Part shown: in pieces, positions 7,001 through 30,557 of the stretch | Layout: each line of letters opens with the position of its first letter | How positions within the stretch are numbered: position 1 is the first letter of the stretch | IMG/VR virus record: IMGVR_UViG_3300032236_001304 | Location: 24,443-88,442 of that record | Strand: one strand, 5' to 3' | Origin: a virus | Length of the DNA: 64,000 nt | Translations under genes and position numbers: made by a program | Notes under the pieces: model-generated | Database searches by the model: none | Told to the model about the DNA's origin: nothing | What the model saw: only the letters and a program-made list of their open reading frames with translations

Positions 7001-9031
7001 ATGGCACTACAACCGATAGATAAAAGTTGGTCTTCAAATAAAAAAGACATTAAATATGTAAACAGAGATTTTGCATCTTTAAAGCAAGCATTAGTTGAAT
7101 TTACTAAAACATATTTCGCTAATACAAATAGTGATTTTACAGATGCATCTCCTGGTATGATGTTTATAGAGCAAGCTGCGTATGTAGGTGATGTTTTATC
7201 ATATTATACCGATGCTCAATTAAAAGAATCATTTATTAATGCAGCATCTAACTATAAAAACATTTTAAGCCACGCACAAAATTTTGGATATGTTCCTAAG
7301 ATTAGTAGACCGGCAACAACTACATTAACGGTGTATCAACAAGTTCCATCTATAAATGTAGCGGGTAATTATGAACCGGATTTTACATATTGTGTTAAGA
7401 TTAAAGAGGGAATGCAAGTTAAATCAAAATCAAATAACAATATTACATTTACAACAACAGATGTAGTAGATTTTGGAAATTCAATAAATAGAACAGTATC
7501 GGTACTTTCATTTGACCAATCTAATAATCCTAATTTTTATTTATTAACAAAGACTGTTCCAGCTATTAGTGCAACACTTGTAACTGAAACATTCCCATTA
7601 GGTTCATTTACACCAAACCCTACTTTTAATATTGTAGATTCAAACTTTATAAAAGTAGTTTCAATTTCAGATAATTCAAACAATTATTATGAAGTTCCAT
7701 ATTTGGCACAAGAAATGGTGTATATTAAAGAACCAAATGCGGCATTATACGATAGTACTTTAGTATCAGATTCGGATGTTACTCCTTACAATTTAAAGTT
7801 AATTAAAACTAATAGAAGATTTACTACAAGAGTAACCGATGTTGATACGATTCAATTAAGATTTGGAGCAGCAAGTGAAACTACGGCAGATGAAATGATT
7901 ATACCTAATACTAAAAATGTAGGATTAGGATTAAACAATTCAATTAGTAGATTAGAACAATCATTTGACCCTTCTAACTTTTTAAAGACATCCACATATG
8001 GTATTGCACCGTCTGGAACTAATAATCAATTGACGGTAAAATATTATAGTGGTGGTGGTATATCATCTAACGTAGCATCAAATGAATTACGAACAATATC
8101 TTTATTAGAATTTGATGAAGATTTATTAGCATTTAATACAATTACATCACCAACATATCAAACAGCAAAAGCATCAATAGCAGTGGATAATTTAGTTCCT
8201 GCAACTGGTGGTAGAGGTATTGAAACATTGGATGAAATTAGAGAAAATGCAATTGCAAATTTTGCATCACAAAATAGAGCAGTAACTAAACAAGATTACG
8301 AAGTTAGAGCATTATCGATGGATGCTGCCTTTGGTAGTATCGCTAAAGTATATGTAGAACAAGATTCTGCGGCAGATATCAATCCAACACAAAATGTATT
8401 GAGAGATCCACAAAGTAGATCTGAGTTTCTTAATATGACAAAATCTTTGGTAGGAAAGAGTGATACTGAAATACAAACTGCAATAGATTCTTTCTTAAAA
8501 TCCAAACATACTTTTAATGCAGATAATAACCCATTTGCAATCAATATGTACACATTGGGGTATAATTCTAACGGAAACCTTACAACGTTGAATAGCGCAA
8601 CTAAAAACAACCTTAAAACGTATTTAAACGATTATAGATTGATTACGGATGCTGTTAATATATTAGATGGATTTATTATTAATATAGGAGTAGAATTTGA
8701 AATAACAGTTTATTCTAATTATAATAAAAGAGAAGTAGTATTAAGTTGTTTACAATCGGTAACAAATTATTTTAATATTAATAATAGAAAAATAAATCAA
8801 CCTATAAACATTAGTGAATTAGAATTAGAAATTGCTAATGTAGATGGTGTAGCATCCGTACCTAAAGTAAATATTACAAATATATGTGGGGATGGAACGG
8901 ATAGTAGTTATTCTAAATATGTTTATGATATTACAGCAGCAACTAAGAATAAAATTGTATATCCTTCATTAGACCCTTCTATTTTTGAATTGAAGTTTCC
9001 ATCAACGGATATTAAAGGGAGAGCATTATAA
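7001..9031 (+). CDS. Baseplate wedge subunit, T4 gp6/P2 gpJ-like
   Basis: RDFASLKQAL...DFTDASPGMMFIEQAAYVGDVLSYYTD at the N-terminus and GGRGIETLDEIRENA...QNRAVTKQDY are typical gp6/baseplate J motifs. Confidence 0.9.
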   Translation: MALQPIDKSWSSNKKDIKYVNRDFASLKQALVEFTKTYFANTNSDFTDASPGMMFIEQAAYVGDVLSYYTDAQLKESFINAASNYKNILSHAQNFGYVPKISRPATTTLTVYQQVPSINVAGNYEPDFTYCVKIKEGMQVKSKSNNNITFTTTDVVDFGNSINRTVSVLSFDQSNNPNFYLLTKTVPAISATLVTETFPLGSFTPNPTFNIVDSNFIKVVSISDNSNNYYEVPYLAQEMVYIKEPNAALYDSTLVSDSDVTPYNLKLIKTNRRFTTRVTDVDTIQLRFGAASETTADEMIIPNTKNVGLGLNNSISRLEQSFDPSNFLKTSTYGIAPSGTNNQLTVKYYSGGGISSNVASNELRTISLLEFDEDLLAFNTITSPTYQTAKASIAVDNLVPATGGRGIETLDEIRENAIANFASQNRAVTKQDYEVRALSMDAAFGSIAKVYVEQDSAADINPTQNVLRDPQSRSEFLNMTKSLVGKSDTEIQTAIDSFLKSKHTFNADNNPFAINMYTLGYNSNGNLTTLNSATKNNLKTYLNDYRLITDAVNILDGFIINIGVEFEITVYSNYNKREVVLSCLQSVTNYFNINNRKINQPINISELELEIANVDGVASVPKVNITNICGDGTDSSYSKYVYDITAATKNKIVYPSLDPSIFELKFPSTDIKGRAL

Positions 9032-10116
9032 TGGTATTATTTTATACAGCATCACAAGATGCAACTATATATTTACAACAACCTTATCAAAACACTGGTA
9101 TTGATGAAATGTTGGAAATATCTAAACAATATTACGGTGATACATCTGATATGAGTAGAGTATTAATTCAATTTGATAATATTGAATTACCAAATGTTCC
9201 ATTTAGTGCATCATTACAATTAAAGATAACAAAGGCAGATGAAATTCCTGCTAGATTTAGTATTGAAGCATATCCAATTAGTGGTAGTTGGGAAATGGGT
9301 ACTGGTACTCGTTTTGATAATTTAACTACTAATGGTGCAACTTGGATGTATAGAAATGGAGATGATACAAATTCTAATTGGTATACACATATGGATGGTA
9401 TTACGGCATCATATGATCTGTATGTAGATGGTGATGCAAGTGGATGGGGTGGTAGTTGGTATACATCATCAGTAGTATCTCAATCTTTTAATTATAGATT
9501 AGATGATATTAATTTAGATGTTACTCAATTCTTTGAAAGATGGGCAGATAATGAATTAATTAATAATGGTATTATACTTAAATTTCCAAAAAGTGCAGAA
9601 ACTGATAATGTTGATTATGGTAGTATTAAAATATTCTCAAAAGAAACTAATACAATATATCAACCTAAATTAGTTATTACTTATTTAGAAGATGATGTGG
9701 TTAGTGGAAGTTTAACTACAATTACAGATTATGTAAATGCTAGTCAATATGATGTTCAATATAGAGTGTATTCTCCTAATTTAAAAACAACATATCACAA
9801 AGGACAAAAGATAACAATAAAAATAGATGCAAGAGAATTATATCCAATCAAACAATTTAATTCTACATTTGCATACCAAGTTAAATATTACTTACCATCA
9901 ACCGCATATTATAGTGTGATTGACACGGTAACAAAAGAAACCCTAATACCATACTCCGATGCAAGTAGAGTGGTACAAGGTGAATATAACAACTTAATTA
10001 AATTAAACTTTAGTAACTGGCCTATTGGTAGAAATTATACATTATTAATCAAATCAATCGATAGTGATGATAATGAACAAATTTTTGAAGTAGGTTCATT
10101 TGACATATACGAATAA
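9031..10116 (+). CDS. Virion structural protein (DNRLRE-like beta-sandwich)
   Basis: DATIY...NTG...SRVLIQFD, W-x-x-G, LDVT...W...NNGIILK, FSKE...PKLVITY pattern; lies inside the baseplate module. Confidence 0.55.
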   Translation: MVLFYTASQDATIYLQQPYQNTGIDEMLEISKQYYGDTSDMSRVLIQFDNIELPNVPFSASLQLKITKADEIPARFSIEAYPISGSWEMGTGTRFDNLTTNGATWMYRNGDDTNSNWYTHMDGITASYDLYVDGDASGWGGSWYTSSVVSQSFNYRLDDINLDVTQFFERWADNELINNGIILKFPKSAETDNVDYGSIKIFSKETNTIYQPKLVITYLEDDVVSGSLTTITDYVNASQYDVQYRVYSPNLKTTYHKGQKITIKIDARELYPIKQFNSTFAYQVKYYLPSTAYYSVIDTVTKETLIPYSDASRVVQGEYNNLIKLNFSNWPIGRNYTLLIKSIDSDDNEQIFEVGSFDIYE

Positions 10117-11180: not shown

Positions 11181-11183
11181 TAT

Positions 11184-12468: not shown

Positions 12469-12472
12469 CTCA

Positions 12473-15400
12473 ATGGGATATTTAGAAAATTTGTATTCAA
12501 AAAATATGACGGGTGGTAACTACATTCCGTTTAATTCATTAGATATTTTTAATGAAACTATTAGTAGTGGAACTAGTGGTAATAGTGGTGGATATACACC
12601 TGCAGTCAAATCACCCGGAAACGATTTAAAAATATTTCTTACAAATACAAGTCAGTATAAAGGACAAATGACCTTTAATGTTCAAAATCAGAACTATAAT
12701 GAAGGTACATCGATTGCAATTGATTCAAACACAATTAATGATAGTTTATTAATTAAACCAATTGTAAATGATGGATATACATTAAAAAATTATTTTCAAT
12801 TTGTAAAAGGTTCTAATGGTAAGATTCTGTTTAATACTTACAATGGTAGAAATGAATTACAAGGAACTAAGCAATTAGAGTTACCCGATACACTTGATTT
12901 GGGATTTGATTTGGATGTAACACCTAAAATAGTTACAAAAACAACAGCTACTAAAATACAATCTGTTTTTTTAACTACTAATTATAATAATTCTACATTA
13001 AATAATGAATTAGAAGTAACTATTGGTTCAAATGATTTATCATCACCAAAAAAATTAAAAATAGGTGATTCGGTAGATATTTCAAATATTAACAATACAT
13101 CATCCGATTTAAATATTTCGGTTAGTGGATTATCATCGTTTAATTTAAAAAATATTAGATGGCAATATGCTAATAAATTTAGTAGTAATAGTGTATTTGA
13201 TATAAATGATTTTAATATATTAACAGGTGATACAACCGCGGTAATAAAAAATACAATATTCAATTCTAATATTGTATTATTAATAGAAGTAGTTCCTAAT
13301 ACTGCAAATTATCCTACACTAACATTAGATAAAAATACAATAACTACTAATATTGCGGAAAGTGTTTTTGCTAATAAGAGTGATTATTCAATTAATGTTG
13401 ATTGTAAAATAACAAAAGCTGATTCGGTAAAAATTAAAACGCCATATAGAGAATTTACACAAACTGTAAGTAATGGTATTTTTTTAGATTTACAAAATGA
13501 CTTTAAAAATAATGAAGGACAGTTTAAAGTATTATTGACACCATATTCAAATTTATATGGTGATGGAATTACACAATCAATATTAATAACAATTGGTAAA
13601 GTATTTGATACTCCAATTATAGATAAAATAGATTATCCAACAAATGTAACAATACCTGTTTATAGTTTTGGTGATACTAATTTTACAATACTTTTTGAAA
13701 GTACGTTAGCTAATAAAGTATTAATATATCATACAAAAGAAGATGATGTAAATTTATTTGGCAAATTTAACGCAAATGATAAAATAATATTAAACTATAA
13801 TTCTATTAAAGCATTTAATACAAATGCAACCTTAGATTTATTAATAGTTCCATATAATGGAAACATTAAAGGTGAAATAGAAAGAATTAGTATTTCATTT
13901 GATGATCCTGGATTTTATGTTTCTACACAAAATTTAAAAGATGAATTATTTAATGCAATTGCATCACAATTAAAACTTAATTTAAATAAATCAAGTTATT
14001 TAAATCATTTAACATCATTTGATGTAGATGATAAGCAAATTATTATTTCAAATTGGGATACTGATACTAATACCTTTACTAAATTTAAAACCGATGAATT
14101 AGGTAATCAAATTCCCGATGGTCAAATAAGTAAAACTATTGTATTAAAATTATATGAACCATTACCAACGAATATTAATAAAAATGATACTCTTTGGATT
14201 TCTGAATTAATGGCATTACCAATATTACAATCGGTTGTAATTAGTGGTAATAATGAAGATAATTGTATTCCATTAAGAGCTGCTAATTTTAATATTGAAG
14301 TTGATTTTGTTAAAGGACAATCTACCGGATTTGAGTCATATGATAGTTTAATATTAAGTGGTTCTACTACATCTCAACAATTAATAGACAAATATTTAAC
14401 TGAAAATTTTATTGATGTTAAAGGTATTAATATTAAGTATGCAAGTGGTTCTACTCCTACATTTGAAAATTTTGTAAAGTATAGTAGTGCAGTTGAAAGA
14501 TTAGCAAACTTTAGATATAAAAAAGAATTGGCTGAATGGTATGATGATAAAATCAATACATTATCAGATGTAGCTACATCAACTACTACTGCATTAAATT
14601 TAGATATTCAAAATTATATTACTAAAAAAACAAATTTAGTAACTGGATTTGATGGTTGGGAAACATATCTAACACAAAGTGTATTTACGGGTTCTTTTAA
14701 TAATAATATAGATGTATATAATAATTACTATACATTGGCAAGTGAATATGATAGAACTAACAATAATGCTTTAAAAAACAATTTACCATTACATATTATT
14801 GATGATAATAATAATTTAGATTATGTATTATTCTTAGATATGGTTGGTAATTATTTTGATATCTTGTGGGCATATATTAAAGGTATAAGTGACCAACGTA
14901 AAATATCAGAACAAAAGAGTGATGGTATAAGTGATGATTTGTTATATCAATATTTAAAATCATTTGGATGGGATGCTAAAAATTTAAATTCTAATAAACA
15001 ACTTTGGGATTATACATTTGGTTATAATAATGAAGGTGTTACTGGTTCATTTACATCTGATGTTCATTTGGGTGAAAATAATACATTAATTACACCTGAA
15101 GCAGCTAATTCACAAATTTGGAGAAGAATTGCAAATAACTTACCTTATTTATTAAAACATAAAGGTAGTATTAGAGGTATTAATGCATTACTTACTTGTT
15201 ATGGTATACCGGCATCTAATATTTCTATTATGGAGTTCGGTGGCCCTAATATACAAACCGTAGAAGATTCACCTAAATTTATATACGATAGTTTAACACA
15301 TAATTTAGTATTTGATAATGTAAGTGCTAGTTTAAATATTCCATTCAACGGAACACCTAAACCACAATCAATTGAGTTTAAATTTAAACCAAATGATTTT

Positions 15401-17257
15401 GAATCATATACATTTATAACAGGTAGTAATTTTAAAATAGGAATTGTAGCGAATAATTCAGGCGATGTAATTGGTAAAAAATATGGTTATTTAAAAATAA
15501 ACAATCAATTATTTGATAATATATCATATCCGTTTTACGATGGTAATTATCATAGTATATTAATTAACAAAAGTGGTAGTTCAATTACTACATATGTTAA
15601 AACAAATGATAAAGACAGAATTATACATAGTGCTGAGTGGAATGCTACTATTGTAGAAAGTGATTACGAAAATACAACTACATTATCATTCACAGGATTT
15701 AAAGGTCATTTAGAAGAGTTTAGATTATGGAATACTAACTTAAGTGAGAGTGTATTTGATAATCACGTAATAATGCCTGAGGCGATAAATGGTAATGATA
15801 TTTATGGTTCTACAAATGATTTATTATTAAGATTAGATTTTGAAAGACCACAGAGTTTATTTACTACTAGTTCAATTAATAATGTAGCACCTAATTTAAA
15901 CTATATAGATTCAGTAGAAACTATTGGTTTTGCAAGTGCATCTAATTATCCATGGAATTATGAAGTATTAGAAAGACAAGTATCTTTAACAATTCCTAAT
16001 AGTGGAGCAAGTAGATATTACACTAATAAAGTAAGATTAGAATCACAACAATTAGTAGGTAATTTATCTCCAACAAAAAGAGCAACTAAAAAAGCATTTG
16101 AAACATCTACAAAAGATTCTAATAGAGTAGGTTTATTTTTCTCACCTAATAAAGATTTGGATTTAGATATTGCAAAATCATTGGGTGGTGAATCATTTGA
16201 TGATTTTATCGGTGACCCTCAATATGAATATGGATATACAACTTATCCTGAATTAGATACTATACGAAACTATTATTTTGAAAGAGTAGGTGAACGAAAC
16301 TTATATGAGTTTATTCGTTTAATTAAATTCTATGATAAATCATTATTTGTTAATTTAAAAGAAATGTTGCCAGTTAGAGCAAATGCTACAACAGGTCTTT
16401 TAATAGCACCACATTTATTAGAAAGAAATAAAGTTAAAATAAATAGACCCAAAGTTGAAGCAGAGAGTTTAGAGGGTATTGTAAAAGAAACTCAAATTAC
16501 AGATTTAGTTGGTAATTATAATGTATTAGATAGTGAATTAGATTTAAGAGATACATTAAATAATATAAGTGCAATTAATGAAGATTTAGATGCGGAAATA
16601 AATGCAACTGATACCTACAATTTTGCTGCAGAAGATTTAACATATGAAGTTACAATTGATAATGATTTGGGAAATGTAGCTAGTGCAGAATGGGAAACGT
16701 ATGATGGAACAATTGATTATAATAGATATGCTGGAACGTTAACAACTGAATTTGAATTACTTGGTTCTGGGCAAGTTGTTGGTATGGGATTATATGATGA
16801 TTATGGATTTAATACTTATTTTACAAACGGATATGGAAAATATCATTATGAAGAAAATGGTTCATTTAAATCTAAAGGTGTAAGAGGATTTTTAGTAACT
16901 AGAAAACATACTTATTTATATCCAAGTGCAAGTATTAATGGTATTGTATCTACGGTGGCGACTTCATCTTTTTCACAAGATTTAATTATACAAGATTTTA
17001 GTTCTAGTTTAGGATTACAAGGAGATCCTAATATAATTAGTATCGTTACAGCAAGTGGATATTTACCATCTCATCATATTTATAAAGGTGAAAAACACAC
17101 TGGTATGCAGAATTTGTTTTACAATGGTTCTAAACAAACAAAATATACTACAATAGACGGTAAAGATGCAGTTGAAACATTTGTAACTAATCCAACTACA
17201 TTACGAGTTACTAAACAAGGTAGAAGTAATAACGAACCAATCTTAGAAGTTGATTAA
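12473..17257 (+). CDS. Large baseplate wedge/tail protein (gpI/gp7-like segment plus LamG-like domain)
   Basis: WRRIANNLPYLLKHKGSIRGINALLTCYG resembles the P2 gpI-type KG(T/S) motif; SIEFKFKP...YHSILI...FKGHLEEFRLWN is LamG-like; 1594 aa. Confidence 0.65.
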   Translation: MGYLENLYSKNMTGGNYIPFNSLDIFNETISSGTSGNSGGYTPAVKSPGNDLKIFLTNTSQYKGQMTFNVQNQNYNEGTSIAIDSNTINDSLLIKPIVNDGYTLKNYFQFVKGSNGKILFNTYNGRNELQGTKQLELPDTLDLGFDLDVTPKIVTKTTATKIQSVFLTTNYNNSTLNNELEVTIGSNDLSSPKKLKIGDSVDISNINNTSSDLNISVSGLSSFNLKNIRWQYANKFSSNSVFDINDFNILTGDTTAVIKNTIFNSNIVLLIEVVPNTANYPTLTLDKNTITTNIAESVFANKSDYSINVDCKITKADSVKIKTPYREFTQTVSNGIFLDLQNDFKNNEGQFKVLLTPYSNLYGDGITQSILITIGKVFDTPIIDKIDYPTNVTIPVYSFGDTNFTILFESTLANKVLIYHTKEDDVNLFGKFNANDKIILNYNSIKAFNTNATLDLLIVPYNGNIKGEIERISISFDDPGFYVSTQNLKDELFNAIASQLKLNLNKSSYLNHLTSFDVDDKQIIISNWDTDTNTFTKFKTDELGNQIPDGQISKTIVLKLYEPLPTNINKNDTLWISELMALPILQSVVISGNNEDNCIPLRAANFNIEVDFVKGQSTGFESYDSLILSGSTTSQQLIDKYLTENFIDVKGINIKYASGSTPTFENFVKYSSAVERLANFRYKKELAEWYDDKINTLSDVATSTTTALNLDIQNYITKKTNLVTGFDGWETYLTQSVFTGSFNNNIDVYNNYYTLASEYDRTNNNALKNNLPLHIIDDNNNLDYVLFLDMVGNYFDILWAYIKGISDQRKISEQKSDGISDDLLYQYLKSFGWDAKNLNSNKQLWDYTFGYNNEGVTGSFTSDVHLGENNTLITPEAANSQIWRRIANNLPYLLKHKGSIRGINALLTCYGIPASNISIMEFGGPNIQTVEDSPKFIYDSLTHNLVFDNVSASLNIPFNGTPKPQSIEFKFKPNDFESYTFITGSNFKIGIVANNSGDVIGKKYGYLKINNQLFDNISYPFYDGNYHSILINKSGSSITTYVKTNDKDRIIHSAEWNATIVESDYENTTTLSFTGFKGHLEEFRLWNTNLSESVFDNHVIMPEAINGNDIYGSTNDLLLRLDFERPQSLFTTSSINNVAPNLNYIDSVETIGFASASNYPWNYEVLERQVSLTIPNSGASRYYTNKVRLESQQLVGNLSPTKRATKKAFETSTKDSNRVGLFFSPNKDLDLDIAKSLGGESFDDFIGDPQYEYGYTTYPELDTIRNYYFERVGERNLYEFIRLIKFYDKSLFVNLKEMLPVRANATTGLLIAPHLLERNKVKINRPKVEAESLEGIVKETQITDLVGNYNVLDSELDLRDTLNNISAINEDLDAEINATDTYNFAAEDLTYEVTIDNDLGNVASAEWETYDGTIDYNRYAGTLTTEFELLGSGQVVGMGLYDDYGFNTYFTNGYGKYHYEENGSFKSKGVRGFLVTRKHTYLYPSASINGIVSTVATSSFSQDLIIQDFSSSLGLQGDPNIISIVTASGYLPSHHIYKGEKHTGMQNLFYNGSKQTKYTTIDGKDAVETFVTNPTTLRVTKQGRSNNEPILEVD

Positions 17258-17313: not shown

Positions 17314-17937
17314 ATGGCATATTTAGATAACACAACGATTACAGTAGATGCTATCCTTACAAAAAAAGGAAGAGAAAAATTAGCAGCTGGTCAACCTTTA
17401 AACATTACACAATTTGCATTAGGTGATGATGAAATTGATTATAATTTATATGATGCAGCACATCCAAAAGGAAGTGCTTTTTATGATTATGCAATTTTAA
17501 AAACACCAATTTTAGAAGCATCTCCGGATGAAACACAAGCATTAAAATACAAATTAGTAACTTTACCAAAAGGTACAGTAAAAATACCTGTGGTTTCAAT
17601 TAATGTTGCATCTATTGCAGCAAAAACTACCGGTGGTAAATTCCCTATCACTCCTTCAACTTCACCAGCGGGTAATTTGAATGGTGGTTATACAGCAGTA
17701 TTAGGAAATAAAAATGCTGGTACTATTGTTGGTGAAGGTTTAGCAAATGTAACAACAACTTCAACTACATTTACAAATAGTGTAACTGCAACTGCTGAAG
17801 TAGTTAAAGGTATGACATTTACTTTCATTCCTAATAGTTCATTAACTTCTACATTAACAACAACATTAACTATATTTGGTAACGAAACTGGTGGTAGTAT
17901 TACTATTCCTGTAACCGTTACTTATGTAGCTGCATAA
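17314..17937 (+). CDS. Virion structural protein (tail-collar/fibre-attachment-like N-terminus)
   Basis: AILTKKGREKLAAGQPLNITQFALGD resembles the start of P2 gpH/DUF3751-type domains; Thr-rich Ig-like C-terminus. Confidence 0.6.
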   Translation: MAYLDNTTITVDAILTKKGREKLAAGQPLNITQFALGDDEIDYNLYDAAHPKGSAFYDYAILKTPILEASPDETQALKYKLVTLPKGTVKIPVVSINVASIAAKTTGGKFPITPSTSPAGNLNGGYTAVLGNKNAGTIVGEGLANVTTTSTTFTNSVTATAEVVKGMTFTFIPNSSLTSTLTTTLTIFGNETGGSITIPVTVTYVAA

Positions 17938-17954: not shown

Positions 17955-19187
17955 ATGGCAACTTTAGGTACAAATACCGGAACACAATTAACCAATGATT
18001 TAGCAACGTATCTTAACCAACAGAAACAAAATGCTAATGGTACATTAGATACAACTCAATTGGCGGCAATCATTAACAACTATCTTACAACAGGTGAGAA
18101 GTTAGTAATGGAAACAGGTACAACTACAAATTCAGTATATAAAGCATTTAACACAACTGATGTAGTACCTGCTAAAAATGAAATCGTAACAACTGGTATA
18201 TTTAGTAATGGTAGTGGTAGCTTAAGCCAATTTTTTACAAGTTCTACATCAAATGTAGCTGGTAATGGTTTAAAATTTTATTCTGGTTCAGTTACTTCAC
18301 CTTATTATTATAATGTATATGCATCATCTGCATCTACTGCTCCAGTTGAATTTTCAGTAGGATATGGTCATATTAGTGGTGCAGGTGTGCCAAATACAGC
18401 AGCAGATCCTAATTCAACTTTAGCTACTAAAGCTACTTATTTTCAATATAGAGCGTTATTAACTGATACTGGTGAAAATTATTTTACATTTTATTCTGGT
18501 AGTACATTAGATGGATATTCATCAAACGATATTTATTTTATTAATTTAAGTAGAGCAAATTACAGAGAAAGAATGGATGCAGGTAACTGGGAAATTCATT
18601 TGAGTGGCTCTAAAGGTATTTATACATTCATAGACAATAGTGGTGAAAAATTCAACACAGTAAATAGTGGTACAAACGAATTTAATATCGTAAGTGGTAC
18701 ATTGAATTTAGGAACTACAAATCCAGCAACAATTGCTTCAGTTACAGCATCTAATGGACAAGGATTTGGTAAATTCTATCCTGATTATGGTATTTTAGTA
18801 TTCAACCCAACTGCATTAAGTGCTAGTGTTGGTGGTGAATTAGGTGGTTCTACTCAATCTTCTTCATATGATTATTCACAAAACGATTTCTTAAATGCAA
18901 TTAGTGGTGGTGCATATTTTGAAGCAAGAAGAATTGAAAACGTATCAACTGCACACTATTTTGTAAGAGTTAATAACAGAGAATTCAATTTTTCAAATAA
19001 CCCTACTTATACTGATGCTACTGGTTCATTTATTGAGCCTACTTTTACAACAGATCCTTTAACTTATATTACAACCGTTGGATTGTTTAACGATGCAAAC
19101 GAAATGATTGCAGTTGCTAAAACATCTCAACCAATAGCTAAATCTTTCAGTAAAGAATTATTATTGAAAGTTAAATTAGATTTCTAA
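17955..19187 (+). CDS. Virion structural protein (baseplate/tail), probably abundant
   Basis: Ser/Gly/Thr-rich; C-terminal EFNFSNNP...YITTVGLFNDANEMIAVAKTSQPIAK; followed by a terminator hairpin. Confidence 0.65.
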   Translation: MATLGTNTGTQLTNDLATYLNQQKQNANGTLDTTQLAAIINNYLTTGEKLVMETGTTTNSVYKAFNTTDVVPAKNEIVTTGIFSNGSGSLSQFFTSSTSNVAGNGLKFYSGSVTSPYYYNVYASSASTAPVEFSVGYGHISGAGVPNTAADPNSTLATKATYFQYRALLTDTGENYFTFYSGSTLDGYSSNDIYFINLSRANYRERMDAGNWEIHLSGSKGIYTFIDNSGEKFNTVNSGTNEFNIVSGTLNLGTTNPATIASVTASNGQGFGKFYPDYGILVFNPTALSASVGGELGGSTQSSSYDYSQNDFLNAISGGAYFEARRIENVSTAHYFVRVNNREFNFSNNPTYTDATGSFIEPTFTTDPLTYITTVGLFNDANEMIAVAKTSQPIAKSFSKELLLKVKLDF

Positions 19188-22722: not shown

Positions 22723-25700
22723 ATGAATAAATTAAAAAGAATTTATCACATTGCAGACATTCACATTAGAAATCTAAAAAGACACCAGGAATATAGAGAG
22801 GTATTTGATAGATTATTTAATGACATAAAAAACAGGGGAACTGAAGATTCCCTTATTTATTTAGCGGGGGATTTGGCTCACGCAAAATTAGAAATGTCAC
22901 CGGAGCTTCTTAACGAAATAAATTATTTTCTTAAGAAATGTTGTGAATTATGTCCTACCATATTAATCGCTGGTAATCATGATTGTAATTTGAATAATGC
23001 TGGTAGATTAGATGTATTGAGTCCAATTGTAGAAGCATTAGATTTACCTAATTTAACTTATTTAAGAAATACTCAAAGTTATACCTATGGGGGTGTAAGA
23101 TTTGATACTTTCTCTATTTTTGATGAGAAAGAAAATTGGGTATTTGAACCATTAACATCTGATACTAAAAATATTGCATTGTTTCATGGACCTGTATTAG
23201 ATGCAACTACTGATGTTGGTTATACAATTTCATCTCGTCATTTTACATCAGAAATGTTTGATGGATATGATTTAGCCCTATTAGGTGATATCCATAAAAG
23301 ACAAACTATGATTTCACCTAAAGGTTGTAAAGTAGTTTATCCAGGTTCTTTGATTCAACAAAATCATGGTGAAGCATTAGATAAACATGGTTATGCTATT
23401 TGGAATATGGATGATTTATCAGTTGAATATGTAGATGTTCAAAATGATTATGGTTATTATACTTTACATGTTGAGAATGGTATAGTACCTGATGTAACTG
23501 ATATGCCTCAGAAACCTCGTCTTAGAGTGTTTGTATCTAAAACCGATGCAGCAGATATTAAGAGAGTTACTACTGAAATTAAAAAGAAATATAAAGTAGA
23601 TGAGTTTACTATTACTCGTACCGACACTTTAGCTCGTTTAAGGACGGGTAATAAGGATGGTAAGTTGAATGTAGGTAATGTGAACGATCCTCAATACCAA
23701 GCTGGTCTTATTAAAGATTACTTAGGTAGAAACTATATGTTGGATGATGAAACATTGGGTAAGATTGAGGACTTGAACAATAAACTAAACAAAAGATTAA
23801 ATGATGATGATTTAGTTAAGAACATAGCTTGGAAACCAATTCGTTTTGAGTTTGATAATATGTTCAGTTATGGAGAAGATAATATCGTTAACTTTGAAAA
23901 TATGAAAGGGTTAATGGGTGTGTTCGCTCCAAACGCAAGTGGTAAATCTTCTTTGTTTGATGCATTATCATTTTGTATATTTGATAAGAGTAGTAGAGCT
24001 TTCAAAGCAGCTAACATTCTAAACAATCGTAAAACATCATTTAATTGTAAGTTAGAGTTCGATATCAATGATGAAAGATTTTTTATTGAAAGAACCGCTA
24101 AAACAAGTAAGAAAGGTGATTCAGTTAAATGTGATGTAAACTTTTGGAAAATAGAAGGTGATGAAATTGTAAACCTAAATGGTGATGAACGTAGAGGAAC
24201 TGATAAAGTAATTGAATCTTATTTAGGTAAATATGAAGATTTTGTTTTAACTGCATTATCTTTACAAGGAAACAATTCTCTATTCATTGATAAATCTCAA
24301 TCAGAAAGAAAGGATTTATTAGCTCAATTTATGGGTATTAATGTCTTTGATAAGTTATATGACTTAGCAAGTGAAGATATTAAAGAAGTTCAGGTTTTAT
24401 TAAGAAATTTTAAGAGAACAGATTTTACATCAGAGTTGGCAACAGCAGAAAGTAAATTAGAATTATTAAAAGATGATTACGAAGAATTTGAAATTGAGAA
24501 AGAACGTTATGAAGATAGACAAGATGAATTAAATGAACAAATAACTAATTTATCAGCTCAATTAGTTCCTATGGATGGTAATTTAGATATTAATGATTTG
24601 AATACCAAAAAACAACAATTACAAAATAGTTTAGAGGAATTAAAAGAATTAAGTATTACCAAAGCTACAACTCTTAGTGATATTGTTGCTAAGGTAGTAG
24701 AACTAAAAAAATTATTAGCTGAAAAAGAAAATCCTAATGGTGTTAATATAGAAGTTGTATATTCTAATTATCAAAAAGAACAAAAAGCATTAGTTGAAGC
24801 AACTAAAGTATATGATAATGCAAAATTACATTTAAGTTTAGCAAAAGAAAAGATTAAACATTTGGATAATCATGAATATGACCCTAATTGTAAATTTTGT
24901 TGTGATAATACTTTTGTAAAAGATGCAATGAATGCAAAAAACACATTACCTCAAATACAAGAGATAGTAAATCAAGCTATAATAGATTGTACTGGTATTC
25001 AACAAACATTGGATACTATGGAAGGTATAGAGGAACAATACAAAGAAGTAACGGAATTAAAAGCTAAAATACACAAAGGAGTACAAGCACATACAAATAA
25101 AACTTTAGAATTTAGTGGTATGGTTACTCAAAAAGAGTTATACGAAGCACAATTAACAGCAGTTGATTTAGATATTGAAAGATACTATGCCAACGAAGCA
25201 AACATTCAAAACAATGATTCTTTAGAGGAACAAATTGATATTAAGAAACAAGAATTAGCTGGAGTTAGTAAAGACCTAAGAGAGATAGCAACTAGATTAT
25301 TAGAGTTAAATGGGCAGATAGTTCAAACACAATCTTACATTACATCAGTTACCGATAAGATGGCTGAAGCAAAAGATTTAGAAGAAAAGTTCCAAATCTA
25401 CGAATACTATTTAGATGCAGTTAAAAGAGATGGTGTTTCATATGAATTGATTGCAAAGGCTCTACCAGTGATAGAAGGTGAGGTAAATAACATCTTACAA
25501 CAAATTGTAGAGTTCGGTATCGTTTTTGATATGAGTGGTAAGAATGTGAACGCTAGGATTGTTTATGAGGATCAGCATTGGCCATTAGAAATGTGTAGTG
25601 GTATGGAAAAGTTCGTTAGTGGATTGGCAATTAGAGTTGCACTTATTAATGTATGTAACTTACCTCGTCCAAACTTTTTAGTAATTGATGAAGGATTTGG

Positions 25701-25869
25701 AACATTAGATAGTGATAACTTACAATCTATCTTTATGATGTTTGATTATCTTAAAACACAATTTGATTTCATTAATATCATTTCTCACTTGGATGCAATG
25801 CGAGATGTAGTAGATACATTAGTTGAAATTAAAAAAATAGATGGGTTCTCACAAATACAATATAAATAA
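22723..25869 (+). CDS. Fused Mre11/SbcD nuclease - Rad50/SbcC ATPase (gp47-gp46 fusion)
   Basis: N-terminus: ADIH, AGD, AGNHD, LFHG, LGDIH, YPGS phosphoesterase motifs. C-terminus: Walker A APNASGKSS, Q-loop SLQG, coiled coil with CKFC zinc hook, signature CSGMEK, Walker B VIDEGFGTLD, ISH. No stop between them. Confidence 0.93.
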   Translation: MNKLKRIYHIADIHIRNLKRHQEYREVFDRLFNDIKNRGTEDSLIYLAGDLAHAKLEMSPELLNEINYFLKKCCELCPTILIAGNHDCNLNNAGRLDVLSPIVEALDLPNLTYLRNTQSYTYGGVRFDTFSIFDEKENWVFEPLTSDTKNIALFHGPVLDATTDVGYTISSRHFTSEMFDGYDLALLGDIHKRQTMISPKGCKVVYPGSLIQQNHGEALDKHGYAIWNMDDLSVEYVDVQNDYGYYTLHVENGIVPDVTDMPQKPRLRVFVSKTDAADIKRVTTEIKKKYKVDEFTITRTDTLARLRTGNKDGKLNVGNVNDPQYQAGLIKDYLGRNYMLDDETLGKIEDLNNKLNKRLNDDDLVKNIAWKPIRFEFDNMFSYGEDNIVNFENMKGLMGVFAPNASGKSSLFDALSFCIFDKSSRAFKAANILNNRKTSFNCKLEFDINDERFFIERTAKTSKKGDSVKCDVNFWKIEGDEIVNLNGDERRGTDKVIESYLGKYEDFVLTALSLQGNNSLFIDKSQSERKDLLAQFMGINVFDKLYDLASEDIKEVQVLLRNFKRTDFTSELATAESKLELLKDDYEEFEIEKERYEDRQDELNEQITNLSAQLVPMDGNLDINDLNTKKQQLQNSLEELKELSITKATTLSDIVAKVVELKKLLAEKENPNGVNIEVVYSNYQKEQKALVEATKVYDNAKLHLSLAKEKIKHLDNHEYDPNCKFCCDNTFVKDAMNAKNTLPQIQEIVNQAIIDCTGIQQTLDTMEGIEEQYKEVTELKAKIHKGVQAHTNKTLEFSGMVTQKELYEAQLTAVDLDIERYYANEANIQNNDSLEEQIDIKKQELAGVSKDLREIATRLLELNGQIVQTQSYITSVTDKMAEAKDLEEKFQIYEYYLDAVKRDGVSYELIAKALPVIEGEVNNILQQIVEFGIVFDMSGKNVNARIVYEDQHWPLEMCSGMEKFVSGLAIRVALINVCNLPRPNFLVIDEGFGTLDSDNLQSIFMMFDYLKTQFDFINIISHLDAMRDVVDTLVEIKKIDGFSQIQYK

Positions 25870-25889
25870 TATTTATATTAAATACTACT

Positions 25890-26549
25890 ATGTTTAATCA
25901 AAACTTATTTGATGAATTAAAAACCAAAGGGTTTTTAGAACTTAAATTAGAAAATTTATTTCCAGATAGATTTGCAAAATTTGTAGAAATTTCTACAAAA
26001 TTAAAAAAAACAAATTTTATTAATGCATGTCATACTGGGATAGATAATAATTGGTCACATAATGTACCATTTAATGAATTAGAAAAAATTAAAGAAAGAG
26101 GATTGAATAGTAATTCAATTTGGCAATTTTGGTTTTTTGATGGAAATTTAAATTTATACATTTCACATGAAGATATTATATTTTTAAAAAAATTAATTAC
26201 TGATATTCGTGATATTATTTATCCATTAGATGTTTTAAACGCCGATGGTAGAAACGATGGTAATATAGAATTAACACTATATAATAAAGGTTGTTTTGTA
26301 GGTCCACATGAGGATGGTAATGGTGGAGATAAATTATGTAATCTTTTAATTTATTTAAATGAAGATTATGAAGAAGGATTTGGTGGAGAAATTGTAATAA
26401 ATGATAATATAATAAAACCATTATTAGGAAATATAGTAGTATTAGATTTCTTATATGTAAATCCAACACATTCTGTTAACACAATAGTAAAAGATGGGTT
26501 TAATAGATTTGCATTAATCACACCATTCTTTAAAAATGAATATTTATAA
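25890..26549 (+). CDS. 2OG-Fe(II) oxygenase (prolyl-hydroxylase-like)
   Basis: Y...HED, LIYLN...GGE, HSV, R: HxD...H iron triad plus 2OG-binding Arg; preceded by TATTTATA (25870-25877). Confidence 0.85.
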   Translation: MFNQNLFDELKTKGFLELKLENLFPDRFAKFVEISTKLKKTNFINACHTGIDNNWSHNVPFNELEKIKERGLNSNSIWQFWFFDGNLNLYISHEDIIFLKKLITDIRDIIYPLDVLNADGRNDGNIELTLYNKGCFVGPHEDGNGGDKLCNLLIYLNEDYEEGFGGEIVINDNIIKPLLGNIVVLDFLYVNPTHSVNTIVKDGFNRFALITPFFKNEYL

Positions 26550-26567
26550 AAAAGAATATTCAATAAA

Positions 26568-29500
26568 ATGGCCGTTGATATAAAAGTTGCTCCGGATGAG
26601 AAATTAGAATTAGTACAAACATACGTTACAGATACTAATCCAAATTCAGATTACTTTGTTATAAGTGAACTACCTGATACATTTTCAGGTGGTAAAAATG
26701 CATTCTTAATAGCAGGTTCAGATAAATTATTAAGCAACACAGAAATAAAAATTCAAGTTAGAGATGCAGCAGGTAACGTTTGTTATATAGAGTTTTCAAA
26801 TGGTTTACCAACTGAGTATTATGAAGGAAATTCTAAAGTAGTAGCAGTATATGTATACCCTACTTTAACTGCATTTGGTCCAGCAACAATTACAATATTA
26901 GGTCAATTAAAAGATACGCCTCCTGAATGGAATGGGTTATATAGTGTAAAATGGCAAAGACAGGTTAATATAAATCCTGCATTAGCTAACACAACAAGAG
27001 TAAGATTATACAAAAGACCTGCGGTTTCAATTAAAGAATTATTACAACCACTTTATTCAATTGTAAGTGGAAGTAAAGTAGCATCATTAGTTACTCAATC
27101 ATTTGCATCAATTACGGTAAATCAATTAGAAACATTTGCTGGTGATGTAAAAAGAGTAAAGGTATATAGAACATCGGCGGGTGATATATCTGATTATGAA
27201 TTAATACAAGATATTTCAATAGAAGCTAAAAATCTTTTAACTACATATGCGTTGAGTGGTAGTGTAGTAGGAAATGCGGGTTTATTTGGTCCTGATAGTT
27301 TAAGTAAAGTTTGGAATACCGGTTCTTTATATGCAACATTAAATTCGACATATGTAACAGATGGGTTAGAATTAACAGGTAGTGGATATTTTAAATATAC
27401 ATCATCATTAAATTTATTAAGTTCAAATACATATGAATTAGAATTAGATACATTTTATACAGGTTCAACTGCTACAAATTTAGTAGCATATATTAGTGGT
27501 ACTCAAAATGGAGTAATTCCAATTACTACATTTAGTGGTTCAACTCCAACTAAAAACTTTGGAACAACTACAATACCATTTACAATTCCAAATGATGAAC
27601 CAACGGCAAGTTTATATCTTTCACAATCAAGTGGAATTAACCAATGGCATGTTGGAAACATATCATTAAACCTTTCACAAGATACAGCATTTTCACCAAA
27701 CGAAGTTAGTTTTATTACATCAATGCCGACAGTATTGGGTAACGAAACATTTAATTTTAAATTTGAATTATATGATGTAAACAATAATTATGTACCAGTT
27801 GCAGTGACAGCAAGTGCATTATTTAACGGTGGTAATAACAATATTGGTGGAACATTATTAATAGTTAGTTCATCAACATCAGCATCAAATGCATATACAT
27901 CAGCATCTATATTAGCATTATCACAATCGGTAAGTGGAACAATTGGTATAGTAACTGGTAGTGTATCATTTGTAAGTACATCGGTTTCATCATCATTATC
28001 ACAATCGTTTGGTGCAACTGCAGCAGCTAGTGCAAGTTTACAAAGTTCATCTTTATATATTAGTGCATCGGTTAGCGGCACTATTTCAAATGTTTCTCAA
28101 AGTGCAAGTTCATCATTATCATTAGTTTCTCAAAGTGTTAGTAAAAGTATTGCATCTATAAGTGCATCGGCTGCAAGTGCATCTAATTTTAACTATGCAT
28201 ATACAACGTATTTAGATGGAAATATTTTTACAGATTCAACCGGTAAATTAATTAAAACGCCGGCGACATCATCTACTCAAAATGGATTATATACAGGACA
28301 ACAATACTTAGGATTTTATAGTGGAAGTAGTTGGAAAACCTATATGGCTAACAATGGTAATTTCTATTTAACATCATCGGTAGCAGGTGGTGGTTTTATG
28401 GCATGGAATGCAGCTGCAGCAAATTTGGCAATAGCAGGAAATATAACAATATTAGGTGGAGATGCAGCAACAACTGCATCAGTAACTACTGCTGTAAATA
28501 ATGGTACTGCCTCATTAAGTCAATCATTAGCACCAAATATATTTACAGATTCAAATGGTAAAATTGTAAGACCTCCAACAAATCCTGCTTCAAATTATGG
28601 TTTATTTTTAGCGAGTGATCATTTAGGATTTTATAGTGCAAGTGCAACCGATGGTGGGACTTGGAAAACTTATATGGATAATAGCGGAAAATTTTATTTG
28701 ACAGGTTCTGCTTCAAACTATCTTAAATGGGATGGCAGTGTATTAACAATAGCTGGTGCAATTAATATTGTTGGTGGACAAGCAGCAACTGATATTGCAA
28801 ACGCAGCATCATCTGGTTCAAATGCATTATCATATGCAGTTGCAAATAATGCAACTGCATCTGCAGCAGCCGCATCACAAGCAGCAACTGCAGCATCAAC
28901 GGCAGCAAACTACGCACTTATAAATGCAAATACATCATCGATATCTGCAGCAGCTACAGCAGCTGGTTTTGCACTTATAAATGCAAATACTGCATCTATA
29001 TTTACAGACTCAACCGGAAAAATAAATAAAACACCTGCAACCGGTTCACAAACTGGATTATTTTTAGGTGATTCATATTTGGGTTATTACAATGGTAGTA
29101 ATTGGAAAACCTATATGCAAAATAATGGTAATTTTTATTTAAGTGGAACAAATGGATATTTAAGTTGGAATGCAGGAGCAGATACATTAGGAATTAAAGG
29201 TGATATTATTGCAACAAATATTACCGCAACAACAACGGGAAATATAGCGGGTTGGAATATAGATGGTAGTAGATTTTACAAATCAGTAACTAACGTTGGA
29301 TTACTTGAAATTAAATCTTCTGATAATACAATTTCAATGTATGATACTGCTAATAATTTAAAATTACAAATAAATCCGACTAATACTCAACCTACTATAA
29401 CAATACCAAGTAATACAACAACAATTGGTGCAGTTCAAGGAACATTCAAAATTCCACCTGGCGTATATACAAATAGTCAATATTATTCTGAAACAGTTGC

Positions 29501-30557
29501 ATCATTTACATTAACGGGTGCATTAAATGAAGTATTCGTAGATGATATAGGTCCTAAATTTTATGATAGTGCACTTAGTGCAGCAGATAATGCAATGAAT
29601 TACTTTGGTAACTATTGGAGATACTTAAAAGTACAAGGTGTTAAATATTATTTGTATTTACAATTAATAAATCAATCAACAGGACAAGCAAGACAATATA
29701 CTATTGCATATATTCAATGTGATTTACCATATAATCCAGCAGATGGTGCATCAAATTATAAAAATGGTTCTTTAACTACATCACCTGCACTATTTTCAAA
29801 TTTAGCAGCTGGAAATTATACATTAGGATTAATACATTATGCGGAAGCTACTCAAATAGCTAATCCATATGTACCATCTTCTCCAGGTGATGGTATAACA
29901 GTTTATCCATGGACATCTACTCAAAATGGTGTTCTTAATGTAACGTATGGTTCATCAAACGCATATTCTGTATTAAACGCGGGTGGATTATCTTTGTATC
30001 AAGGTTCTCAGAATTATGTAAAAGCAGTTTCACCGGGAAGTGGTACGGATGCATATTTTACAGTTAAAGGAAGAACTAGTTTTATAAATTCAGTAACCAT
30101 CGGTGGTACATTGAATGCAAACTTTAAACAATTCCAAATTACACATCCATTAGATAAAAATAAATGGTTATTTCACTCAGCAATAGAAGCACCAAGAGCG
30201 GATTTGATTTATAGAGGAACAATTGAATTATTAAATGGAAGTGGTAGTGTTAATATAGATAGTCAATCTAAAATGATGGATGGTACTTTTGTTGCATTAA
30301 CAAAAAATAGACAATTATTTTTACAAAACAATGTTAGTTTTGATAAAGTAATTGGAACAATAGATGGTGCAATTGTAAATGTAATTTGTGAAAATAAAAA
30401 TTCAAATGATAAAATTGGTTGGATGGTAGTAGCAGAAAGAAATGATACTGAAATTTTAGCATCTAAATTATATAATACAAGTGGTAGCTATATACCAGAA
30501 CGATATAAAGATTCTGTTTTTACAGAAAATTATACAATTGATAGTGGTTCAATTTAA
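26568..30557 (+). CDS. Tail fibre / receptor-binding protein
   Basis: 1329 aa; Ser/Ala-rich shafts, three internal repeats, GNIAGWNI motif and a C-terminal KQFQITHPL...LFHSAIEAP...YRG domain typical of phage fibres; TATTTATA at 26541-26548. Confidence 0.8.
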   Translation: MAVDIKVAPDEKLELVQTYVTDTNPNSDYFVISELPDTFSGGKNAFLIAGSDKLLSNTEIKIQVRDAAGNVCYIEFSNGLPTEYYEGNSKVVAVYVYPTLTAFGPATITILGQLKDTPPEWNGLYSVKWQRQVNINPALANTTRVRLYKRPAVSIKELLQPLYSIVSGSKVASLVTQSFASITVNQLETFAGDVKRVKVYRTSAGDISDYELIQDISIEAKNLLTTYALSGSVVGNAGLFGPDSLSKVWNTGSLYATLNSTYVTDGLELTGSGYFKYTSSLNLLSSNTYELELDTFYTGSTATNLVAYISGTQNGVIPITTFSGSTPTKNFGTTTIPFTIPNDEPTASLYLSQSSGINQWHVGNISLNLSQDTAFSPNEVSFITSMPTVLGNETFNFKFELYDVNNNYVPVAVTASALFNGGNNNIGGTLLIVSSSTSASNAYTSASILALSQSVSGTIGIVTGSVSFVSTSVSSSLSQSFGATAAASASLQSSSLYISASVSGTISNVSQSASSSLSLVSQSVSKSIASISASAASASNFNYAYTTYLDGNIFTDSTGKLIKTPATSSTQNGLYTGQQYLGFYSGSSWKTYMANNGNFYLTSSVAGGGFMAWNAAAANLAIAGNITILGGDAATTASVTTAVNNGTASLSQSLAPNIFTDSNGKIVRPPTNPASNYGLFLASDHLGFYSASATDGGTWKTYMDNSGKFYLTGSASNYLKWDGSVLTIAGAINIVGGQAATDIANAASSGSNALSYAVANNATASAAAASQAATAASTAANYALINANTSSISAAATAAGFALINANTASIFTDSTGKINKTPATGSQTGLFLGDSYLGYYNGSNWKTYMQNNGNFYLSGTNGYLSWNAGADTLGIKGDIIATNITATTTGNIAGWNIDGSRFYKSVTNVGLLEIKSSDNTISMYDTANNLKLQINPTNTQPTITIPSNTTTIGAVQGTFKIPPGVYTNSQYYSETVASFTLTGALNEVFVDDIGPKFYDSALSAADNAMNYFGNYWRYLKVQGVKYYLYLQLINQSTGQARQYTIAYIQCDLPYNPADGASNYKNGSLTTSPALFSNLAAGNYTLGLIHYAEATQIANPYVPSSPGDGITVYPWTSTQNGVLNVTYGSSNAYSVLNAGGLSLYQGSQNYVKAVSPGSGTDAYFTVKGRTSFINSVTIGGTLNANFKQFQITHPLDKNKWLFHSAIEAPRADLIYRGTIELLNGSGSVNIDSQSKMMDGTFVALTKNRQLFLQNNVSFDKVIGTIDGAIVNVICENKNSNDKIGWMVVAERNDTEILASKLYNTSGSYIPERYKDSVFTENYTIDSGSI
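28224..29145 (+). repeat. Three ~50-aa repeat modules in the tail fibre
   Basis: IFTDS(T/N)GK...GL(Y/F)...LG(F/Y)Y...WKTYM-x-N-x-G-x-FYL starting at 28224, 28539 and 28998; also a 20-bp direct repeat GCACTTATAAATGCAAATAC at 28914 and 28971. Confidence 0.9.

Follow-up and report, generated by a model that had tools for sequence, protein, structure and literature searches.

The general O-glycosylation system of Bacteroidota acts at the motif D-(S/T)-(A/I/L/V/M/T), the serine-rich-repeat adhesins glycosylated by GtfA/GtfB carry acceptor tracts of Ser-x-Ser type, and the shafts of trimeric phage fibers are built of β-helix or β-spiral repeat units. Full-text literature searches returned no acceptor motif described for phage fiber glycosylation. 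PMC12619734 describes large aquatic phages that form one lineage, have Flavobacteriia as predicted hosts and carry four core groups of glycosyltransferases; it cites the O-glycosylation of mycobacteriophage virions (Freeman et al. 2023) as precedent. Here we examine a 64-kb stretch of DNA (the window) that makes up the 3' portion of one viral contig of 88,442 bases (IMG/VR record IMGVR_UViG_3300032236_001304). A sequence-only reading of the window had noted that its virion proteins appear enriched in [ST][GASQ]S tripeptides and had proposed these as acceptors for the phage's own glycosylation island. We show that a short linear motif, hydrophobic-[ST]-[GAQ]-S-hydrophobic, recurs in a particular group of virion proteins exposed on the particle, comprising a post-wedge protein resembling carbohydrate-binding modules (CBMs), a giant fiber protein, fiber proteins of 340 to 450 amino acids (aa) and the distal tail fiber, to which relatives of the window phage add some head-block proteins.

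All of the tetrapeptides cited in support of that proposal are present in the open reading frames (ORFs) named for them. We counted [ST][GASQ]S against 1000 whole-protein shuffles in the 55 nonoverlapping plus-strand ORFs of the window, which are referred to by their start positions (Table 1); here and below, paired counts are observed versus expected. Four ORFs stand out, namely 9031 (7 versus 1.36, z 5.1), 12473 (16 versus 4.84, z 5.2), 17955 (11 versus 2.87, z 5.3) and 26568 (45 versus 12.56, z 10.0), and the remaining 51 of 55 lie at or under expectation, trivial single hits aside. The excess in the four persists when residues are shuffled only inside blocks of 40, 20 or 10, and also under dipeptide-preserving shuffles (z 2.6, 3.0, 3.3 and 6.9; p ≤ 0.009).

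A position-by-position scan against block-20 shuffles revealed which residues carry the signal. Only Ser (46 versus 18.5) and Thr (33 versus 10.5) are enriched at position 1, only Gly (27 versus 6.7), Ala (25 versus 7.0) and Gln (12 versus 3.2) at position 2, and only Ser (79 versus 29.0) at position 3, where Thr is flat (23 versus 20.3). The pattern is strongly asymmetric, since T-x-S occurs 33 times against 10.5 expected, S-x-T 13 against 10.4 and T-x-T 10 against 10.0. Ser at the middle position is also flat (15 versus 12.1), and we therefore redefined the motif as [ST][GAQ]S, which over the four ORFs pooled is found 64 times against 16.3 in shuffles that keep local composition, or 45 times against 7.1 when a hydrophobic residue precedes it. 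An unbiased scan in Flavobacterium phage immuto and Microcystis phage Mel-JY01 yields the identical asymmetric rule.

It is extremely improbable that this signal is a chance or compositional artefact of Ser/Thr/Gly-rich proteins encoded at low G+C, with a motif picked post hoc. The carriers are indeed Ser/Thr-rich, the motif was picked by eye, and a Ser/Ala tract of ORF 26568 (residues 426-545, 120 residues) is 36% Ser; 12 of the 37 refined sites of that protein fall inside this low-complexity tract, and some other sites fall in repeat-like modules. However, the excess outlasts both the 10-residue-block and the dipeptide shuffles, and we rejected the tract as its source because masking residues 426-545 leaves 52 versus 11.9 sites in the four ORFs (z 12.3). 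SGS ranks first in an unbiased scan of all tripeptides, and the excess is replicated in independent data, including immuto, Mel-JY01, 111 representatives of the post-wedge (9031) family and post-wedge proteins on 76 viral contigs (547 versus 99.5). The sequence-only reading was thus right that the excess goes beyond Ser/Thr/Gly composition; its description of the sites as lying in globular, nonrepetitive contexts holds only partly, failing for about one-third of the sites of ORF 26568 and for those in the repeat-like modules. A cause at the DNA level was likewise rejected, as the codons at the motif, including those for Ser, are mixed and near background, and the signature of trinucleotide slippage is absent (6 versus 4.6 of 64). 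So were paralogy and internal repeats as the main source, since blastp at 1e-3 found the four ORFs dissimilar, apart from a 42-residue C-terminal match between ORFs 17955 and 19289. The motif excess is selected at the protein level.

Not every virion protein takes part, and the claim that virion proteins as such are enriched applies to the four ORFs above and not to 7001, 10116, 11184, 17314 or 19289. The baseplate wedge 7001 serves as an internal negative control, being Ser/Thr-rich and yet devoid of the motif (0 versus 2.8), and seven wedge-position proteins from the clade, when pooled, are equally empty (0 versus 9.4, with none of 1000 shuffles that low). Seven proteins at the orthologous position of the 207-aa ORF 17314 also pool to 0 versus 4.2 (p 0.018). 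The other 84 ORFs of the contig together hold 18 sites against 23.0 and the island ORFs 3 against 5.5, in line with the impression by eye that the tripeptide is rare in the primase, the Mre11-Rad50 fusion and the island enzymes. Within ORF 26568, segments 1-160 and 831-1220 are free of sites and 33 fall in residues 161-830.

Genome-wide counts give the same picture in relatives. Seven of 133 ORFs are enriched in immuto and 10 of 140 in the relative G012, and the rest pooled are flat (87 versus 80.2 and 50 versus 55.5, respectively). All identifiable enriched ORFs of the two genomes are structural; beyond the fiber module they include a small tail-fiber-like protein and, mildly, the G012 major head protein, the other carriers there are of unassigned function, the two in immuto lying in the head-morphogenesis block, and no carrier outside the fiber module of either genome matched an enzyme family. 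The motif is not a generic property of tail fibers, an explanation that we rejected on the flat counts of T4 and two outgroup phages. None of 30 structural or control proteins of T4 is enriched (21 versus 34.5 summed; gp34, 4 versus 4.0; gp37, 6 versus 4.4; gp12, 3 versus 1.9; fibritin, 0 versus 1.6), and the baseplate neighborhoods of LR756511 (13 versus 11.9) and CM1 (28 versus 20.5), which have only the wedge N terminus in common with the window, are flat. Two fiber-like, motif-rich ORFs outside the fiber module, at 135,031-136,152 of immuto MW353176 (14 versus 2.0; in the head-morphogenesis block) and at G012:C1:108,616-109,641 (16 versus 3.4), share no detectable homology and could encode head fibers or whiskers.

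The clade that bears the motif consists of aquatic myoviruses of ~160 to 220 kb, immuto and Mel-JY01 among them, whose fiber modules are syntenic with that of the window. Homologues of ORF 17955 were found on 22 viral contigs with the excess kept; of 16 distinct sequences, the window's included, 14 have z scores of 4.4 to 6.4 and 2 of ~2, and five sites are kept in 11 to 15 of the 16 as other sites turn over. These sequences are too alike for a test of variable columns, and immuto, Mel-JY01, RM378 and the uncultured phage LR756508 hold more remote homologues. At the position of ORF 12473, syntenic proteins of 1193 to 1625 aa are enriched in G001, G002, G003, G005, G011, G012, immuto and Mel-JY01. 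A gene-for-gene comparison of G001, G002, G003 and G005, which are distant island-bearing genomes, found 0 sites at the wedge position, 4 to 10 versus 0.9 to 2.1 in the post-wedge protein, 9 to 21 versus 3.4 to 4.3 in the giant protein, 0 in the ~210- to 280-aa protein, and enrichment in the next two fiber-module ORFs (324 to 513 aa). BLAST detects no homology among the window's four carriers or between the head-block carriers of immuto and G012. In fibrous proteins the motif also forms periodic runs, either hexapeptide-like V-[ST]-G-S-hydrophobic-x or [ST]-A-S-Y-A-x-x, with a spacing of 6 to 7 residues; such runs are found in the tail spike of immuto and, for both immuto and G012, in ORFs of the head block. 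At the wedge-gene position of the clade, G012 carries a 1086-aa ORF (G012:C1:49584-52844, minus strand) that is 19% Ser and holds 55 sites against 12.3; its sole match is PHROG 21397, of unknown function, and it sits on a very long branch of the wedge tree.

The post-wedge family offers the deepest sampling and a confident structural model. We reduced 945 clusters to 111 full-length representatives, in which the motif occurs 636 times against 138.7 expected (4.6-fold), with z > 2 in 86% of them, and in which T-x-S is in large excess (317 versus 60.6) when S-x-T and T-x-T stand at 0.78 and 0.74 times expectation. An AF2 model of protein 9031 built from a 101-sequence alignment (predicted local distance difference test score [pLDDT] 93.4, predicted template-modeling score [pTM] 0.90) shows an N-terminal CBM-like β-sandwich followed by a second β-sandwich. 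In Foldseek searches its best PDB matches were chondroitin- and alginate-binding CBMs (template-modeling scores of 0.65 to 0.68 on the target), and its BFVD matches were phage proteins of CBM96/FN3 type. Seven hot spots carry the motif in 23 to 78 of the 101 sequences and lie in mixed contexts (after strands, after a helix, inside strands and in the interdomain linker), the most conserved site being that in the linker, where Ser is favored over Thr at position 3 by 84 to 3. Outside conserved columns the excess persists (143 versus 38.7, with 51 of 101 columns singleton), although misalignment in variable loops may inflate it. An AF2 model of 17955 from 11 sequences was poor (pLDDT 44.7) and unusable beyond a hint.

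An informative comparison is provided by LR756508.1, a 484-kb uncultured phage whose wedge-to-fiber module at 104.7-116 kb (locus L058) is homologous to the window's. Its wedge is 38% identical to that of the window and its post-wedge protein 26% identical, similar to the 27 to 28% of immuto and Mel-JY01, and the motif excess is nearly gone (1 versus 0.4, 5 versus 2.2 and 3 versus 1.3). The post-wedge protein has the motif at none of the five aligned hot spots, the other two of the seven being gapped. Judged by these alignments, the folds can do without the motif. A search for further motif-negative relatives found only three short contigs, and the LR756508 module is an obvious counterpart for comparison in structural or biochemical studies.

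We next consider the island that follows ORF 26568. Homologues of its three GT7-LamG fusions were found on 12 viral contigs at identities down to 32%, and each of the 12 loci has its genes arranged as giant Ser-rich protein, ~330-aa ORF, methyltransferase, GT2 and GT7-LamG. The giants next to the island (26568-30557 in the window and loci L023-L033) have a conserved N-terminal anchor of ~430 residues (39 to 87% identity) and unrelated distal parts, and a fixed anchor with a swapped distal part is, as far as sequence comparison goes, classic tail-fiber mosaicism. A tblastn search of 50,697 cultured-phage records with GT7-LamG found no match, and a domain search of immuto, Mel-JY01, G012 and G011 found no GT7N domain. 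Three of these four genomes are complete (immuto, Mel-JY01 and G012, the last 158 kb with terminal repeats) and G011 is 80% complete, and they are just as enriched as the genomes with the island: immuto has 6 versus 0.9 sites in the post-wedge protein and 54 versus 14.6 in the tail spike; Mel-JY01 has 6 versus 0.9, 13 versus 3.4, 8 versus 2.0, 10 versus 1.8 and 9 versus 1.4; G012 has 16 versus 4.2, 9 versus 1.8, 11 versus 3.1, 16 versus 4.9 and 55 versus 12.3; and G011 has 27 versus 8.9, 8 versus 2.3, 11 versus 2.2 and 40 versus 15.9. The island-adjacent giants of the island-bearing genomes G002 and G003, which are not homologous to 26568, are depleted (4 versus 10.4 and 5 versus 9.6). Together, the equal excess in GT7-less genomes and the depleted giants decouple the motif from the island, so that the predicted co-occurrence of enrichment and island fails, and the motif is independent of the window's GT7-LamG island.

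The narrow form of the acceptor proposal, in which enzymes of the window's island such as GT7-LamG recognize the motif directly, is accordingly very unlikely and, as an initiating role, close to refuted. The island does abut the most motif-rich gene and does so in every one of the 12 loci, LamG-type domains might serve to bind the substrate, be it protein or glycan, and post-wedge sites are nominally more numerous in GT7-bearing genomes (4 to 10, n = 9) than in GT7-less ones (4 to 6, n = 4), but those ranges overlap and are confounded by phylogeny. What survives of the original proposal is the protein-level, selected excess on virion-surface proteins and its absence from enzymes; the link to the island does not.

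GT7-less genomes bear other sugar genes, and we therefore recast the co-occurrence test around a triad of syntenic genes encoding a GT-B (~480 aa), a GT-B-like protein (~440 aa, under the Pfam cutoff) and a small GT2 (~210 aa). At 49-60 kb immuto has a sugar island of ~11 kb with at least five glycosyltransferases, two WecE-type aminotransferases, a methyltransferase, an epimerase and an acetyltransferase of NeuD/PglB/VioB type, and Mel-JY01 also encodes glycosyltransferases; both were for this reason rejected as glycosylation-free controls. Among the nine genomes surveyed, five motif-positive and four motif-negative, the triad is present in all five complete or near-complete motif-positive genomes (immuto, Mel-JY01, G005, G011 and G012; Table 1) and absent from all four motif-negative ones (T4, CM1, LR756511 and LR756508, in the last of which no orthologue of the small GT2 was found). 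G005 carries the triad and the GT7 island together. The triad proteins of immuto and G012 are 46 to 56% identical over their full length, and the set is common to phages of Bacteroidota and of Cyanobacteria. NCBIfam and Pfam searches of the triad returned only the generic families Glycos_transf_1 and Glycos_transf_2.

Several features favor a recognition site as the function of the motif: position 3 strictly favors Ser over Thr, Asn and Asp; the middle position is enriched in Ala and Gln; the carriers are unrelated, span different architectures (a globular CBM-like fold, shafts and a Ser/Ala tract) and have Ser/Thr-rich neighbors free of the motif; the structural contexts are mixed; the LR756508 folds dispense with the motif; the excess persists outside conserved columns; and the motif is specific to a lineage and co-occurs with a conserved glycosyltransferase cluster. 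We tentatively favor the view that it is the acceptor site of a clade-wide, phage-encoded glycosylation, although we would not call this probable. In such a scheme, a cytoplasmic O-glycosylation system, encoded by the phage and conserved across the clade, would recognize the motif, and the orthologous triad would be the best candidate for its enzymes, attaching the initial sugar to Ser or Thr residues in fiber and baseplate proteins, either ahead of assembly or as it proceeds. Later elaboration or diversification of the glycan would fall to variable accessory islands, with the 28-kb set of the window (three GT7-LamG proteins, radical-SAM enzymes, and rare-sugar and branched- or amino-sugar pathways) and the amino-dideoxy-sugar genes of immuto as putative examples; such an arrangement would account for the position of the accessory island next to the distal fiber gene. 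The full version of this model, with O-glycans at a previously undescribed sequon hydrophobic-[ST]-[GAQ]-S on fibers, the baseplate periphery and some head proteins, a GT-B/GT-B-like/GT2 core that starts them and swappable islands that diversify them, is doubtful as a whole.

A number of observations weigh against the acceptor reading. The triad GT-Bs match only generic Glycos_transf_1 and no known protein O-glycosyltransferase family, and the glycosyltransferase clusters could instead serve DNA, the host surface or other targets. The record holding the window, a 41%-complete fragment, shows no triad. The association of triad and motif comprises nine genomes and possibly one phylogenetic split: the wedge tree, a polytomy with long branches in which the G012 ORF is not a simple wedge orthologue, leaves LR756508 either basal or nested, so that the co-occurrence may represent a single event. 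By the secondary structure of the 9031 model, coil is only marginally more frequent at motif instances of the family (57%) than in the model as a whole (52%). The hot spots have preferences of their own, S-[Q/G/E]-S-W (with Trp in 97 of 101 sequences and Glu tolerated), [ST]-Q-S-F and T-G-S-L, which look like local structural constraints, the persistence of the excess in variable columns is subject to the possible misalignment noted above, and in fibrous proteins the motif falls within periodic, hexapeptide-like units.

Some of these points speak for a different explanation that we regard as a serious possibility though not a probable one, namely that the motif is a lineage-specific structural word of β-rich fiber and baseplate domains, marking a strand end with a tight turn or a shaft repeat, unmodified and spread by domain shuffling. 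The hexapeptide- and heptad-like runs in the immuto tail spike and the head-block fiber-like ORFs, the position-specific post-wedge hot spots with an invariant adjoining Trp or Phe, and the five sites kept in the 17955 family are all consistent with it, as are two SGS sites at predicted hairpin turns in the weak 17955 model, and tail-fiber mosaicism could have spread the modules. Generic turn statistics, however, predict an excess of Asn and Asp at both outer positions and of Thr at position 3, none of which is seen in the window proteins, and the middle position is enriched in Ala and Gln, which are not turn formers. Nor do the contexts in the high-confidence 9031 model amount to one conformation. 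The LR756508 homologues retain the module without the motif, the fibers of T4 and the outgroups lack the excess, and unrelated proteins have it when the Ser/Thr-rich wedge has none. Recognition of another kind (phosphorylation or acylation, docking of an assembly chaperone or fiber partner, or a surface element that contacts polysaccharide) would account equally for the asymmetry, the unrelated virion-surface carriers and the on/off pattern, and the CBM-like N-terminal domain of the post-wedge protein suggests that Ser-rich loops could touch host glycans. We consider this unlikely, as the sites are spread over whole proteins and not over one face or terminus, sugar clusters are the only conspicuous modification machinery in these genomes, and no conserved kinase, acyltransferase or chaperone candidate turned up, although no systematic search was made.

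The gene content of the window places these findings in context (Table 1). The window has a G+C content of ~28% (range, 0.22 to 0.34) and nearly all of its genes are on the plus strand. The whole contig (G000) is rated ~41% complete, and since complete relatives span 158 to 216 kb, ~100 kb or more of the window phage is probably missing; the missing part would probably include any core glycosyltransferase cluster, where the acceptor reading would place the phage's own triad, and probably its head genes. No function was assigned to ORFs 9031, 12473, 17955 or 26568 by Pfam or PHROG, and PDB sequence and profile searches with these ORFs and alignment A2 gave nothing useful. By Pfam, the island also encodes a GT2-like protein (33912), a methyltransferase (33160), radical SAM enzymes (39410, 43402 and 48554), NDP-sugar epimerase/dehydratases (42432, 52562 and 53508), an RmlC protein (44958), a 2OG oxygenase (46626), a short DegT protein (47308) and pieces of a TPP enzyme (47934 and 56126).

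Table 1. Positions of the fiber-module, island and triad features discussed in the text.
Feature	Record	Position	Strand	Detail
Baseplate wedge (gp6/J-like)	Window	7001..9031	+	PHROG 219, E 5.9e-21
Post-wedge baseplate-periphery protein, 361 aa	Window	9031..10116	+	6 refined sites (7 by [ST][GASQ]S)
Giant fiber/baseplate protein, 1594 aa	Window	12473..17257	+	12 refined sites (16 by [ST][GASQ]S)
Thr-rich fiber-module protein, 207 aa	Window	17314..17937	+	Zero motif sites
Fiber-module protein, 410 aa	Window	17955..19187	+	9 refined sites
Mre11-Rad50-type fusion	Window	22723-25869		
Tail-fiber-like protein, 1329 aa	Window	26568..30557	+	37 refined sites; directly upstream of island
Glycan synthesis/tailoring island	Window	30568..58925	+	Pfam matches; accessory with respect to the motif
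Three tandem GT7 (N+C)-Laminin_G_3 fusions	Window	34781..39410	+	Glyco_transf_7N E 5.7e-24, 1.8e-22, 3.6e-19
Triad, immuto	MW353176	49.1-52.9 kb		
Triad, Mel-JY01	PP395634	84.4-87.0 kb		
Triad, G005	G005:C1	120.8-124.6 kb		
Triad, G012	G012:C1	122.0-125.4 kb		
Triad, G011	G011:C1	73.8-77.5 kb		

Three further observations concern individual genes. The DegT-type ORF at 47308-47937 (209 aa) is far shorter than the usual aminotransferase. A 214-aa "WecE" ORF of immuto (56,691-57,335) shares 35% identity with it, which indicates that distant phages keep the short form and that the ORF was not truncated locally. The C termini of 17955-19187 (residues 353-394) and 19289-20341 (residues 301-334) are similar over 42 residues (36% identity, E 1e-4), and this shared segment may be an attachment or chaperone-recognition element. 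In three relatives the GT7 match has one in-frame TAA inside a frame of ~470 to 500 aa (G008:C1:23242-24938, G013:C1:33689-35328 and G016:C1:23121-23369), for which recoding, a pseudogene or an error of assembly could each account.

Should the motif act as an acceptor, phage virion proteins would gain their first defined glycosylation sequon, and receptor-binding fibers their first case. Glycans on fibers could alter host range, resemble host surfaces or protect the virion from proteases and lectins of the host or the environment, which would amount to a viral counterpart of O-antigen variation borne on the virion. It would also explain what the large, puzzling sugar islands of uncultured aquatic phages do and would allow glycosylated virion proteins to be predicted from sequence across hundreds of metagenomic phage families, the post-wedge family by itself comprising 945 clusters. 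If the motif is structural, it is a compact signature that flags exposed fiber and baseplate proteins in a clade for which Pfam and PHROG searches come up empty. The question is open to direct test, since the same grammar is present in two phages in culture, immuto (on Flavobacterium sp. LMO8) and Mel-JY01 (on Microcystis).

Comparison with described systems shows partial likeness to each. As in the fiber shafts, the motif recurs in fibrous segments at a spacing of 6 to 7 residues with hydrophobic flanks, but T4 gp12, gp34, gp36, gp37 and fibritin have no excess and the motif also fills a globular CBM-like protein. The N-glycosylation sequon N-x-S/T is at expectation in the four ORFs (66 versus 65.6). 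The GT7-type catalytic domains of the island and the prevalence of Gly in the middle position recall the proteoglycan attachment site and B4GALT7; there the Ser precedes Gly, whereas the invariant Ser of our motif follows it, the motif does not depend on GT7, and proteoglycan-type contexts are at expectation in the four ORFs (SG-x-G, 2 versus 2.3; acid-flanked SG, 6 versus 7.0). The Ser/Ala tract of 26568 resembles the acceptors of GtfA/GtfB, and in the triad a GT-B likewise stands beside a weaker-scoring GT-B-like protein and then further glycosyltransferases; the GtfA/GtfB acceptors, however, are long repeats, whereas single tripeptides within folded domains make up most of the sites here, and we rejected the analogy as the two immuto GT-Bs match neither GtfA nor GtfB family in NCBIfam.

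The O-glycosylation of Bacteroidota is similar in using a minimal three-residue Ser/Thr sequon on many unrelated proteins, and part of the clade's likely hosts are Flavobacteriia. Its motif contains Asp, which the window motif lacks, and D-[ST]-[AILVMT] shows no significant excess across the four ORFs (21 versus 14.7, z 1.8); because the same grammar is found in a cyanophage, the host system of one phylum cannot explain it. The mycobacteriophage system, as presented in the literature cited above, is reported to have its glycans at the C termini of capsid and tail-tube subunits, whereas the candidate sites here are internal tripeptides scattered over fiber and baseplate-periphery proteins of phages that infect Bacteroidota or Cyanobacteria. 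The likeness lies in phage glycosyltransferases that modify the phage's own structural proteins in the cytoplasm, and in this respect the mycobacteriophages are, on the same literature, the only established precedent for the mechanism proposed here.

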